Positions 3,747 to 10,480 of a stretch of DNA of 10,820 nucleotides are shown here, one piece after another. The notes below the pieces were generated by a model, which was given only the letters and a program-made list of their open reading frames with translations, made no database searches and had not been told where the DNA came from. The DNA lies in the IMG/VR virus record IMGVR_UViG_2630968558_000009; one strand, written 5' to 3'. The first letter of the stretch is position 1. Each line of letters starts with the position of its first letter. The stretch comes from a virus. Lineage: Duplodnaviria > Heunggongvirae > Uroviricota > Caudoviricetes. A program made the translations under genes and the position numbers.

Positions 3747-4026
3747 GCGTCCTGTCTCCCCGGTCTTTCTGCTGGGCGAGAAAATCGCGGCACAGGCCTT
3801 TGGCTTTCAGCTCATTCAGCACAAAATCAATATCCTCATTCAGGTAGCTGAAAATATGCGGAATGTAGAGCTGATGCAGGCCGGAGAGTTCACGGTGAAT
3901 CAAATCACCCCCAACAAACTGGGATACGGCGCTGGCGCGGTTGAGCTTATGGTAAGCCTCAATGCTGAGGTGTTCACGGGCGTCATGACGCGCTGAGACG
4001 GTCTGAGGGGCTTTTTTATTACGCAC
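3739..4026 (-). CDS. eps: Epsilon-like protein (in P4, the anti-repressor that derepresses the P2 helper prophage)
   Basis: 95-aa ORF directly upstream of and overlapping orf151. Assigned from size and synteny with the P4 left operon; I did not recognise the sequence itself. Confidence 0.55.
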
Positions 4027-4423
4027 GGGACACCTCCATCACCGGCAGACGGGCCGCAAGGGAGAGCACATAGTCACGGACAAGGGAACGGCGGGCACTG
4101 CGTTCATCACCGGCGACGGTGCGAAGCATGCAGATACGGGGATGACGGTCTGCGCGACGGACAGCCGCAAACACAAAGACAAATTCAGGGTGTGAAGGGG
4201 TAAGGGTCGTAGCCATAAGGCAACCTCCGATAACAGCGTAAATGACGCTATCGCCGGAGTTCTCACGCTCGATGGCGATAGCCCAGACGGGGGTGAGAAT
4301 ACCGGCGTTATCGGAAACCGGCCAGCCCGGAGGCTGCCCCGCCTGAGCTACCATTGACTCAGAGGCATAACATGCGATTGCGAACAGGATCATACCTGCA
4401 CGGCAAACCACACGCCACACCAT
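4019..4423 (-). CDS. Candidate kil/eta-position protein; start codon uncertain
   Basis: The 211-aa track ORF (4019-4654) overlaps vis in its 5' part, so only the 3' portion can be real. In-frame ATGs at 4423 (MVWRVV...) and 4393 (MILFAIACY...) sit downstream of the leader terminator. The stop at 4019-4021 overlaps the epsilon start (4026), suggesting translational coupling. Confidence 0.3.
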
Positions 4424-4455
4424 AATTTGGTGCTCTGTGGCGTTGATTGCGACAC

Positions 4456-4477
4456 AAAAAAAGACGCATGGCGCGTC
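4456..4477 (-). terminator. Candidate intrinsic terminator in the leader between the putative early promoter and the first ORF
   Basis: Minus strand reads gacgc-gccat-gcgtc followed by 7 U (plus-strand A-run 4456-4462, stem 4463-4477). The stem is only 5 bp, so this is tentative. Confidence 0.35.
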
Positions 4478-4540
4478 ATATGTCGCCGATAACATACTCG
4501 GGTTCTCACGCCCGGCTGCCGATTTTGCGACAGCGGAAAA

Positions 4541-4570
4541 ACTATATCCGCAAATGCCGGAAAAAGGCAA
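4541..4570 (-). promoter_or_regulatory. Candidate PLE-like early promoter of the leftward operon
   Basis: On the minus strand, TTGCCT (plus 4565-4570) then an 18-nt spacer then TATAGT (plus 4541-4546), downstream of the vis stop and about 110 nt upstream of the first ORF start. Sequence match only. Confidence 0.3.
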
Positions 4571-4605
4571 GCCAGAAAAAGGGAGTTTTTGCAGAACAGG
4601 CATCA

Positions 4606-4872
4606 TCATGCGTCGTACCCCCGTTTGCGTCCGGCAATGCGCCCGGCCATCCATGCGGTGACTTCAGAGTGCAGCCAGGCCACATTTTTACCGCCAAGAC
4701 TCACCTGCGGCGGAAATTCCCCCTTACGGATGAGTTCATAGATGGTCGAGCGTGACAGGCCGCACAGGTGCATCACTTCCGGCAGACGTAAAAAACGCTC
4801 CTGCGTGATGTCCGGCAGCGGCATCAGTGGCGTCACAGGGGAGGGAGACGGGGAAGAAAAAACAGCTTGCAT
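4606..4872 (-). CDS. vis: Vis-like AlpA-family helix-turn-helix regulator/excisionase
   Basis: 88-aa ORF with an AlpA-type HTH ([16 protein letters not shown]), GAGGT Shine-Dalgarno upstream of the ATG at 4872. It lies between the ori/late-promoter region and the early promoter, as P4 vis (orf88) does. Confidence 0.75.
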
Positions 4873-9032: not shown

Positions 9033-10223
9033 TTAGTAATCATAATTAACGCAACCGGCTGGATAAATAAAATCGCTATACCATTGTAACATTTTTAATC
9101 TTTTCTCTAAGTATTGAGCATGATTATATGTTCCCCTAATGCTATTTTTATCAACATGAGCTAGTTGCATTTCAATCCATTTACTATCAAAACCTTGTTC
9201 ATGTAGTATTGTCGACATTGTATGTCTAAATCCGTGGCCTGTTGCACGTCCCTTATAACCAAGTAATTCGATCACTTGTGATATACTTTCTTTAGAAATT
9301 GGTTTAGTACGATTGTTACGTCCAATAAATATATAAGGATAATGGCTAGAGAGCGGTTTTAATTGATTAAAGAGGGTAATAACTTGAGATGATAAAGGTA
9401 CAAGGTGAGGACGACGCATTTTCATGCGTTCTGCTGGTATTTCCCATATTCCTTTTTCTAAATTGACTTCTTCCCATGTGGCAAAACGCAGTTCTTGTGT
9501 TCTTACCCCGGTAAGCATCACAATCTTGGTTGCATTTTTAGTGATTATGCTGCCAGTATAAGCCTCAAGATCTTTGACAAAATGAGGGAGTTCTTCTGCT
9601 GATAGAAAAGGATGATGTTTTTGCTTCGGTACAGCTAATGCGATAGCTAAATCAGGTGCTGGATTGTATTCAGCGCGGCCAGTGATGATCGCGTAGCGAA
9701 ACACCTCTCCGCATCGTTGACGTACTTTTCTGGTTTTCTCCAACGCTCCACGTTTTTCTATGCGTTTAAGTACTTCAAGCAGTTCTAGGGGTTTTATTTC
9801 AGCTATTGGCCGTTTACCAATGAAAGGAAAAACATCCTGTTCAAATGTTTTAATAATTTCTTCGCGATAAGCTAAAGTCCAGCGATCTGCTTTTGCTGCA
9901 TGCCATTCTCTGCTAACGGCCTCAAAAGAGTTTTCAGATGATAATTTCTGAGCAATTTTCTGAGCCTTACGTTCTTCTACTGGATCAATGCCATTTGCAA
10001 CCTGTTTACGTGCCGTATCGCGTTTCTCACGTGCTTCCGCGAGGCTTACAAGGTCGTAACTACCAAATGACATTAACCGCGCTTTCCCTGCAAACCGGAA
10101 ACGGAAACGCCAGCCTTTCGAGCCATCGGGATTGATAAGCAATGACAGACCTTGTCCATCGTTCAATGTGTATGGTTTGTCTTGTGGTTTTGCACGTTTG
10201 ATCTGTATATCGGTTAGGGCCAT
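9033..10223 (-). CDS. int: P4-family tyrosine recombinase (integrase)
   Basis: 396-aa ORF starting MALTD..., as P4-type integrases do, with a C-terminal catalytic region containing HGFRHT and RGTYNHAQY (catalytic Tyr). Adjacent to the 3' end of the tRNA-Sec gene. Confidence 0.92.
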   Translation of the reverse strand: MALTDIQIKRAKPQDKPYTLNDGQGLSLLINPDGSKGWRFRFRFAGKARLMSFGSYDLVSLAEAREKRDTARKQVANGIDPVEERKAQKIAQKLSSENSFEAVSREWHAAKADRWTLAYREEIIKTFEQDVFPFIGKRPIAEIKPLELLEVLKRIEKRGALEKTRKVRQRCGEVFRYAIITGRAEYNPAPDLAIALAVPKQKHHPFLSAEELPHFVKDLEAYTGSIITKNATKIVMLTGVRTQELRFATWEEVNLEKGIWEIPAERMKMRRPHLVPLSSQVITLFNQLKPLSSHYPYIFIGRNNRTKPISKESISQVIELLGYKGRATGHGFRHTMSTILHEQGFDSKWIEMQLAHVDKNSIRGTYNHAQYLEKRLKMLQWYSDFIYPAGCVNYDY

Positions 10224-10385
10224 GTGTATAACTGAAAACTACGTATAAAAAATCTATACACATTACTATACATATTTTTCGCGGATTCAGGGAGATGATC
10301 TCGGACTATTACGGACAAGCTGATTATTCATCGCATTGAATATAAATGATTTTATGGAGTGTCTCGGAACTGGCTGGATGAGGTT

Positions 10386-10480
10386 TGGCGGAAGATCACA
10401 GGAGTCGAACCTGCCCGGGACCGCTGGCGGCCCCAACTGGATTTGAAGTCCAGCCGCCTCACCGGAGACGACGATCTTCC
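10386..10480 (-). tRNA. selC: tRNA-Sec (selenocysteine tRNA, anticodon UCA)
   Basis: Reverse complement of 10386-10480 reads GGAAGATCGTCGTCTCCGGTGAGGCGGCTGGACTTCAAATCCAGTTGGGGCCGCCAGCGGTCCCGGGCAGGTTCGACTCCTGTGATCTTCCGCCA: 95 nt, long variable arm, TCA anticodon, CCA end. It matches the E. coli selC sequence as I remember it. Confidence 0.9.

Follow-up and report, generated by a model that had tools for sequence, protein, structure and literature searches.

In the satellite phage P4, the terminator t1 between the early promoter PLE and cI is said, from work of Briani in 2000, to be Rho-independent and to need both CI and seqA for its efficiency. The P4 circuit has been summarized in an account that places the promoter inside eta, describes termination through seqA and CI together with the logic of kil and eta, and has Kil translated on read-through and eta translated only from transcripts of the upstream late promoter (PMC10111431). 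Papers on P4 use the names seqA and CI RNA for the structural homologs of the IsrK and C4 RNAs (PMC3632133, PMC4825925).

The IsrK RNA of Gifsy-1 in Salmonella (RF01394) has two 5' hairpins, a linker that is the target of the C4 loop and a Rho-independent terminator, and partial read-through past it reaches a C4-like RNA and a gene that is translated (PMC4825925); the locus described here shares this architecture. In Gifsy-1, hairpin 1 reads GCACCUCAUAAAGCGGGUGC, the spacing to the C4 RNA amounts to about 25 nt (about 100 nt at our locus), and the antirepressor gene anrP lies downstream, where our locus has kil/eta and replication genes. The function demonstrated in Gifsy-1 is the activation of translation in trans, whereas the work on P4 stresses the control of termination in cis. 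Besides, processed antisense RNAs of the C4 family with target repeats on either side are found in immI of P1/P7 (c4-icd-ant) and in N15/phiKO2 (CA RNA-icd-antA/B), where they govern an icd-like gene and the genes downstream of it, and where antirepressor synthesis is controlled and not a replication operon. The specificity classes of these loci differ from the one described here. For instance, phiKO2 (N15-like) gave isrK and C4 matches followed by icd/antA/antB homologs, and its upstream target region also matches c4-a1b1 (RF03163), a family that is not among the gathering-score matches of our sequence.

The element and its left operon

We analysed a stretch of 10,820 nucleotides from a Caudoviricetes record (IMGVR_UViG_2630968558_000009), which is called the window here, and above all its positions 4440-4580, where a reading of the letters without database searches (the sequence-only reading) had noticed a promoter, a short terminated transcript and a repeated octamer, and had suggested a CI-like immunity RNA. 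Judged by its gene content and homology, the window represents a satellite prophage of the P4 kind, which has integrated at the gene for the selenocysteine tRNA. Its minus strand from 4900 to 4150 shares 91.9% identity with phage P4 over 751 nt (100% coverage; X51522 8299-9058). In P4 this span runs from ORF88 (vis) into the region formerly annotated as “cI gene product”, and the mismatches in the alignment are concentrated in seqA, the CI loop and seqC. We scanned the whole window with Rfam at the curated gathering scores, and it turned out that there were three matches, one of which is the tRNA-Sec at 10480-10390. Besides this tRNA gene, the satellite has an integrase, a P-loop cargo gene of 586 aa, psu, a delta of 81 aa, an ORF in the position of sid, vis, the leader, kil/eta, an epsilon homolog, two small ORFs and a homolog of the alpha primase-helicase. 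The cargo gene matches Pfam AAA_22 and KAP_NTPase, as well as PADLOC PDC-S49 at 6.5e-11, and the epsilon homolog downstream of the immunity region matches Pfam “Derepression”. E. coli ATCC 8739 carries the same element, at selC. Leader-like sequences exist in about a quarter of the complete E. coli genomes (1239 of 5426), and 102 of these have at least 99% identity.

The region from PLE through seqA, t1, cI and seqC to kil/eta keeps the synteny and homology of P4 (Table 1), and the leader that separates vis from the first early gene indeed belongs to a P4-type RNA-immunity operon, as the sequence-only reading had supposed. Its gene order is that of the P4 left operon. The promoter, hairpin 2 and the GGCGACA motif are identical to those of P4, while 1-3 bases are changed in each of hairpin 1 and t1. 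Both elements have a 65-aa kil nested in eta, and in both the ATGATGATG start of eta overlaps the stop codon of vis (4608-4606 in the window). The window differs from P4 in an in-frame deletion of 9 nt that lies between t1 and cI, in its integration at tRNA-Sec and in its cargo. The longer frame of eta has its start upstream of the promoter; open between 4609 and 4019, it traverses the promoter, the leader RNA, t1, CI and seqC. As listed by the ORF program, the frame begins at an ATG at 4654, which is 45 nt upstream of the ATGATGATG start.

Table 1. Coordinates of the features in the immunity region of the window
Feature	Position	Strand	Basis or remark
vis (P4 ORF88 homolog, AlpA-type HTH, 88 aa)	4606..4872	-	ORF list; Pfam Phage_AlpA 7.3e-21; aligns with P4 ORF88
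eta homolog, 196 aa	4019..4609	-	counted from the first codon of ATGATGATG at 4609-4601
sigma-70 promoter, PLE equivalent	4541..4570	-	-35 TTGCCT 4570-4565, 18-nt spacer, -10 TATAGT 4546-4541
IsrK-family leader RNA (“seqA RNA” of P4), about 79 nt	4456..4534	-	from predicted start 4534 to end of U-tract
hairpin 1, GCUGUCG-CAAAAU-CGGCAGC	4515..4534	-	99.5% of cells paired (57 sequences)
hairpin 2, CGGG-CGUGAGAA-CCCG	4499..4514	-	83.9% paired (57 sequences)
seqA core GUUAUCGG, upstream CI target	4486..4493	-	perfect 8-nt complement of the CI loop
t1-equivalent intrinsic terminator	4456..4477	-	stem-loop GACGCGCCATGCGTC 4477-4463, U7 4462-4456; 98.2% paired (57 sequences)
3' strand of clamp helix, (G)UGUCGC, candidate	4447..4455	-	holds octamer copy 2
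CI RNA (C4 antisense RNA family)	4271..4358	-	Rfam C4 RF01695, 76.2 bits vs gathering score 45, full-length match
CI seqB loop core CCGAUAAC	4314-4307	-	inside the CI RNA
seqC GUUAUCGGAGG, downstream CI target	4224..4234	-	9-11 nt complementary to the CI loop
kil homolog, 65 aa	4019..4216	-	ATG at 4216; first gene translated from the PLE transcript; 3' part of eta

Promoter, leader RNA and terminator

The interval 4440-4580 very probably holds, on the minus strand, a constitutive early promoter, the start of an untranslated leader of 79 nt and an equivalent of the terminator t1, all serving immunity of the P4 type. The observations behind this reading are the P4 homology, the matches to RNA families, the structures, a three-way complementarity with co-variation and a conserved open frame. 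Such a system is already known from P4, with its early promoter, seqA leader and t1, and it is detected by curated RNA families.

Each on its own, the motifs in the interval hardly exceed chance. In a consensus scan, 1 promoter-like site was found where 1.2 were expected and 5 terminator-like sites where 1.7 were expected; the scan recovered the promoter and the terminator that had been proposed before, this promoter being the only one. Both are regarded as real because they are conserved across relatives, not because of motif statistics. We fetched 122 related loci with Vis as the anchor, which gave 94 unique leaders with 51 distinct seqA/loop/seqC triplets. In the 94 leaders, TTGC of the -35 and TA(T/C)AGT of the -10 are kept in an invariant span of 30 nt, while the spacer sequence comes in 24 variants, and this is the pattern expected of a real promoter. 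Besides, X02534 annotates a “consensus -10” at the position aligned with TATAGT. The hexamers and their 18-nt spacing had been read correctly, and so had the GC hairpin followed by seven U, which is kept in relatives.

The start near 4534, predicted from the letters, equals position 1 of the isrK match, whose other end falls within the U-tract. The isrK model (RF01394) matched 4534-4457 of the minus strand with 68.3 bits (gathering score 50) over model positions 1-77 of 77. Phage P4 scored 60.8 bits at the aligned place and also gave the isrK and C4 pair. Folded as a single sequence, the 79-nt RNA forms hairpin 1, hairpin 2 and the terminator. We counted base pairs in a gap-free alignment of 57 distinct leader sequences, and it turned out that pair 5:16 of hairpin 1 is U-G in 30, C-G in 22 and U-A in 5 of them, that pair 24:33 of hairpin 2 shows a double change (G-C in 50, A-U in 7), and that pair 58:72 of t1 shows a compensatory double change (G-C in 49, C-G in 8). 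The locus has the isrK structure of two 5' hairpins and a Rho-independent terminator, with compensatory changes at these three pairs, and its linker carries GUUAUCGG, which is complementary to the loop of the C4-family RNA just downstream. Across genera, hairpins 1 and 2 hardly vary. As in P4, an intrinsic terminator lies between the promoter and cI; its hairpin, folded alone, has an energy of -6.2 kcal/mol.

The octamer TGTCGCAA does occur twice in direct orientation on the minus strand, at 4532-4525 and 4454-4447, as had been noticed. Where 0.47 occurrences were expected there are two, a number also reached in 14 of 200 shuffles. Copy 1 forms the 5' arm and the loop start of hairpin 1 and reads TGCCGCAA in 49 of the 94 leaders, P4 included. 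The polymorphic partner in pair 5:16 is the third base of this copy, so what is selected is the pairing, not the octamer. Copy 2 is present in 52 leaders, which belong to the E. coli clade only, and both copies are present in just 13. The copies are polymorphic and rarely found together, so the direct repeat is coincidental. Neither copy is complementary to the CI loop. A role of TGTCGCAA as functional direct repeat or as CI target was rejected, since it is barely above chance, polymorphic and seldom doubled in relatives.

The GGCGACA motif was also found where it had been reported (4487-4481, minus strand), and GGCGA directly follows seqA in all 94 leaders. Its complementarity to the octamer, which had been claimed too, holds for copy 2, with which it could form a helix around t1; copy 1 is engaged in hairpin 1. 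In the 335-nt read-through leader folded to minimum free energy, GCGACAUA (4486-4479) and UGUGUCGC (4456-4449) form a helix that clamps t1, and seqA pairs with the CI loop in cis. Within the P4 clade (57-sequence alignment), no double change was found in this clamp, whose invariant core is only 3 bp. In the wider isrK family, a clamp of 5-8 bp is possible in 41 of 41 distinct variants, such as GCGACAAC/GUUGUCGC, GCGAUAC/GUGUCGC and GCGCACA/UGUGUGU. The mean clamp energy is -8.74 kcal/mol for own partners versus -8.32 kcal/mol for swapped ones, and 4 of 2000 permutations reach the observed value. From these folds, it is plausible that the clamp is a conserved feature of the read-through RNA.

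We also considered how the pairing of seqA could act on the terminator. With seqA unblocked, the t1 stem forms with a probability of 0.97 in the window and of 0.78 on average over the 57 leaders; with seqA blocked, the average is 0.93. An equilibrium anti-terminator that CI would relieve was rejected, as the t1 stem is already probable with seqA unblocked. Since the hairpin forms at equilibrium without CI, thermodynamics does not explain how the pairing boosts termination. When the RNA is cut at position 66, GGCG (48-51) pairs with CGCC (62-65), which belongs to the 5' arm and loop of t1, with a mean probability of 0.58 (0.04 in the window). A kinetic anti-terminator of GGCG and CGCC that CI would displace is a possibility to which these truncated folds give weak support, and covariation cannot judge it because both strands are invariant.

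CI RNA, its targets and the frame of eta

The only C4 match in the window lies outside the interval, about 100 nt downstream of it, in a region that aligns with P4 cI. The family that the sequence-only reading had proposed to scan for is present, though not in the place it had pointed to. It had tentatively taken the interval itself as the source of the CI-like RNA, a view in which the TGTCGCAA copies would be the seqA/seqC targets and GGCGACA the antisense core. Such a reading names the right operon and the right class of position, a short terminated transcript is present there, and GGCGACA is partly complementary to TGTCGC. The covariance-model scan of Rfam nevertheless refutes a CI RNA within the interval, as C4 maps to 4358-4271 while the interval matches isrK. 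Besides, the octamers are the wrong sites by their lack of complementarity to the CI loop and their joint presence in so few leaders; the sites that co-vary with the loop are GUUAUCGG and GUUAUCGGAGG. GGCGACA is in fact the invariant 3' flank of seqA (GGCGAC, 4487-4482, minus strand). We consider a CI-like RNA encoded by the interval itself extremely improbable. Overall, what had been observed in the letters was confirmed and its interpretation was partly supported, with the correct system and the wrong assignment of elements.

Complements of the CI loop are found both before cI and over the ribosome-binding site of the first gene, where seqC overlaps the Shine-Dalgarno sequence of kil. In the 94 unique leaders, seqA, loop and seqC co-vary and fall into about 11 specificity classes. 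Most of the targets have 7-9 perfect bases to their own CI loop (86 of 94 for seqA; 92 of 94 for seqC). Over the 51 triplets, the mean longest match to the own loop is 7.2 nt for seqA and 8.4 nt for seqC, versus 3.4 and 4.2 nt to foreign loops. Four apparent exceptions still pair through G-U. Two leaders (L108 and L063) combine seqA of one class with seqB/seqC of another, so that seqA is mismatched to their own CI loop; from the sequences, either seqA control would be dispensable in at least some elements, or these elements would be defective. Two further leaders (L070 and L062) look degenerate.

Compared with P4 cI, seqA, seqB and seqC, the window shows the same arrangement with a switched specificity, as the comparison suggested by the sequence-only reading has now revealed. 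The P4 triplet seqA/seqB/seqC is UUCACAGG/CCUGUGAA/UUCACAGGAGG, while that of the window is GUUAUCGG/CCGAUAAC/GUUAUCGGAGG, which is a different class. The duplex of the window's seqA has -14.7 kcal/mol with its own loop versus -7.9 kcal/mol with the P4 loop, and that of seqC has -18.4 versus -15.0 kcal/mol. The window's CI loop reaches -6.3 kcal/mol with seqA and -8.9 kcal/mol with seqC of P4. Because both the triplets and the duplex energies differ, the element is predicted to be heteroimmune to P4.

An alternative explanation is that the 79-nt transcript is a stable trans-acting sRNA like IsrK, which would titrate the CI/C4 RNA or open the read-through mRNA, counter immunity and activate kil and the genes downstream. 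It shares its Rfam family with IsrK, and in Gifsy-1 the short IsrK activates in trans the translation of the read-through isoform, with the processed C4-like RNA STnc1160 encoded downstream (PMC4825925). As seqA has the sequence of seqC, the short RNA would compete for the CI loop. Hairpins 1 and 2, for all their conservation, have no role in the pairing model, and TraDIS pointed to a requirement for IsrK-like elements of P4-like prophages in S. Typhi (PMC3632133). However, P4 work cited in the same paper reports that seqA is required in cis to establish immunity, and not for anti-immunity (PMC3632133), and the conservation of the two hairpins could equally be due to constraints from the eta frame, to RNA stability or to polymerase pausing. 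We regard this alternative as unlikely, and the cis-acting leader of the P4 type is preferred.

It could also be asked whether the interval is simply protein-coding, as the N-terminal part of Eta (“Icd-like”, Pfam Ash family), with the RNA motifs being incidental. PGAP annotated a 196-aa “Icd-like” CDS over the leader in ATCC 8739 and neither of the two RNAs, and Pfam Phage_ASH matches at 6.3e-22, with residues 37-158 (counted from the ATG at 4654) being the leader itself. Moreover, the eta frame is open from the start site to the ATG of kil in 91 of the 94 leaders, and in these same 91 the leader length is a multiple of three, with eight different lengths and indels that are multiples of 3, while hardly any leader has either of the other two frames open. 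Against such a view, the diversity at the three codon positions is flat in the leader (0.216/0.226/0.218), whereas kil shows a third-position bias (0.054/0.029/0.251). Ordinary protein-coding sequence was rejected for the leader on this result, and the flat diversity means that selection keeps the leader translatable but does not act on its amino-acid sequence. Two RNA covariance models score above threshold here, the paired positions change in a compensatory way, and three sites co-vary. In addition, eta of P4 is translated solely from the late-promoter transcripts (PMC10111431). The purely coding explanation is accordingly very improbable, and an eta that is kept translatable without amino-acid constraint agrees with the P4 account of this gene.

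For the P4-type leader, the following course of events is proposed. The PLE equivalent would fire constitutively and give a leader with two 5' hairpins, a single-stranded linker with seqA (GUUAUCGG) and then the terminator. Read-through past t1 would produce a transcript that contains the CI RNA, which might be cut out as a stable small RNA, as in P4. The CI loop (CCGAUAAC) made from earlier read-through would pair with seqA just upstream of t1 and also with seqC over the ribosome-binding site of kil. As in P4, this pairing may lead to efficient termination at t1 and further downstream and may block the translation of kil, so the replication operon would be off in the lysogen and CI would limit its own synthesis. 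Transcripts from the late promoter would be translated through the whole leader as eta, and termination would be overridden; because ribosomes traverse the leader on these transcripts, late transcription would ignore t1. We infer the CI-enhanced termination, the processing of CI and the prevention of termination by eta translation by analogy with P4, and CI-dependent premature termination and superinfection immunity are likewise carried over from what has been described for such systems (PMC10111431, PMC4825925).

Specificity shared with lambdoid prophages

The isrK and C4 pair also exists in the lambdoid phages 118970_sal3 and 2H10. Their seqA, loop and seqC are identical to those of the window, but their hairpin 1 differs. 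We searched the window's exact 21-nt CI loop, and it turned out that 112 viral contigs contain it. Among the 80 of these that were fetched, 10 are of the P4 type, 53 have a hairpin 1 of the lambdoid type, and 17 carry other isrK variants. The 53 lambdoid-type contigs contain no homolog of Vis, alpha, Psu, Kil or epsilon.

As action goes through short pairing between loop and target and the triplets are identical, cross-reaction between satellite and prophage is predicted. On these sequences, it is possible, though we hold it only tentatively, that the leader RNA and the CI RNA of the satellite belong to one pool of trans-acting RNAs together with the isrK-C4 modules of unrelated lambdoid prophages. 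The general idea of cross-reaction was proposed by Barquist et al. (PMC3632133), while we found no report of identical specificities in the literature on immunity classes or cross-talk.

For annotation, the public record has one CDS at this place and neither RNA, which can now be corrected, and the catalogue of about 11 co-varying immunity specificities is modest new material. The shared specificity is the only part that might repay experiments, since an identical specificity in the satellite and in lambdoid modules makes the cross-talk directly testable. If the shared pool is real and the RNAs act in trans, as they do in P4 and Gifsy-1, the satellite would meet an immunity imposed by a resident lambdoid prophage, while the CI RNA of the satellite would repress the antirepressor operon of the prophage, and the short leader RNA would be a decoy. 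Satellites and phages that are not their helpers would then be connected in a network of cross-immunity at the RNA level.

The eta frame and the protein labels of the leader

The long eta frame, which runs through the promoter, leader RNA, t1 terminator, CI RNA and seqC and whose 3' part is kil, is open across the non-coding leader in 91 of the 94 unique relatives, and every leader indel in the frame in these 91 is a multiple of 3. The substitutions in the leader part of eta show no codon-position bias, unlike those in the downstream kil, and selection here seems to act on translatability but not on protein sequence. A Phage_ASH match (Pfam PF10554) corresponds approximately to the translated RNA leader, covering isrK (the P4 'seqA' leader RNA family), CI and seqC, while in the E. 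coli ATCC 8739 copy RefSeq/PGAP places a single 196-aa 'Icd-like' CDS over the leader (L125 6492-7082) and leaves both small RNAs unannotated. What these two protein labels capture is largely conserved RNA sequence.

Features of the window
Feature	Position	Strand	Remark
eta frame	4019-4609	-
Phage_ASH match	4181-4546	-
seqC (target over kil ribosome-binding site)	4224-4234		GUUAUCGGAGG
CI loop (seqB)	4307-4314		CCGAUAAC
Potential clamp helix	4479-4486 with 4449-4456	-	bases 5' of t1 with bases 3' of its U-tract
seqA (leader target)	4486-4493		GUUAUCGG
Conserved block	4567-4595	-	CTGCAAAAACTCCCTTTTTCTGGCTTGC; directly upstream of -35 hexamer, extends into it
P-loop protein, 586 aa	7260-9020	-	between psu and integrase
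Tyrosine integrase and adjoining full-length tRNA-Sec gene (83.8 bits)	9033-10480	-

Conserved block at the promoter and potential clamp helix at t1

Genera hardly differ in the block at the -35 hexamer, in contrast to the highly variable -35/-10 spacer; an UP element, a binding site for a regulator or a constraint from the N-terminus of eta could account for it. Around t1, the potential clamp helix needs read-through RNA to form, and each of the 41 sequence variants from the wider isrK family would allow it.

Cargo gene, integration site and delta

The 586-aa P-loop protein occupies the position where P4-like satellites have their variable cargo/defence hotspot, matches Pfam AAA_22 and KAP_NTPase and, weakly, the PADLOC candidate PDC-S49 (6.5e-11), and its gene is also found in E. 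coli ATCC 8739. Since the tyrosine integrase adjoins a full-length tRNA-Sec gene, the element is integrated at selC, the site also used by retronphage phiR73. The delta protein consists of one Ogr/Delta domain (81 aa).

Immunity specificities in satellites and lambdoid phages

Within the leader, about 260-700 nt past the vis match, two relatives (L108 and L063) have a CI loop and seqC that belong together in specificity class and a seqA that belongs to a different class, and in two others (L070 and L062) the loop is no longer matched by the targets. These four leaders have the look of decaying elements or of recombinants whose breakpoint falls between t1 and cI. In phiKO2, Rfam c4-a1b1 (RF03163) also passed, with 49.1 bits, in a region (L126 610-662) that coincides in part with the 5' portion of the isrK match; this family is not among the gathering-score matches of the window or of P4.

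In the isrK-C4 modules of the lambdoid phages 118970_sal3 (L127 700-900) and 2H10 (L128 700-905), seqA, CI loop and seqC are all identical to those of the window, and 53 of 80 viral contigs that have the exact 21-nt loop (L129-L208) lack any P4 marker gene. Because satellite and lambdoid modules share one specificity, their sequences predict that RNA cross-talk would occur between the window's satellite and unrelated prophages.
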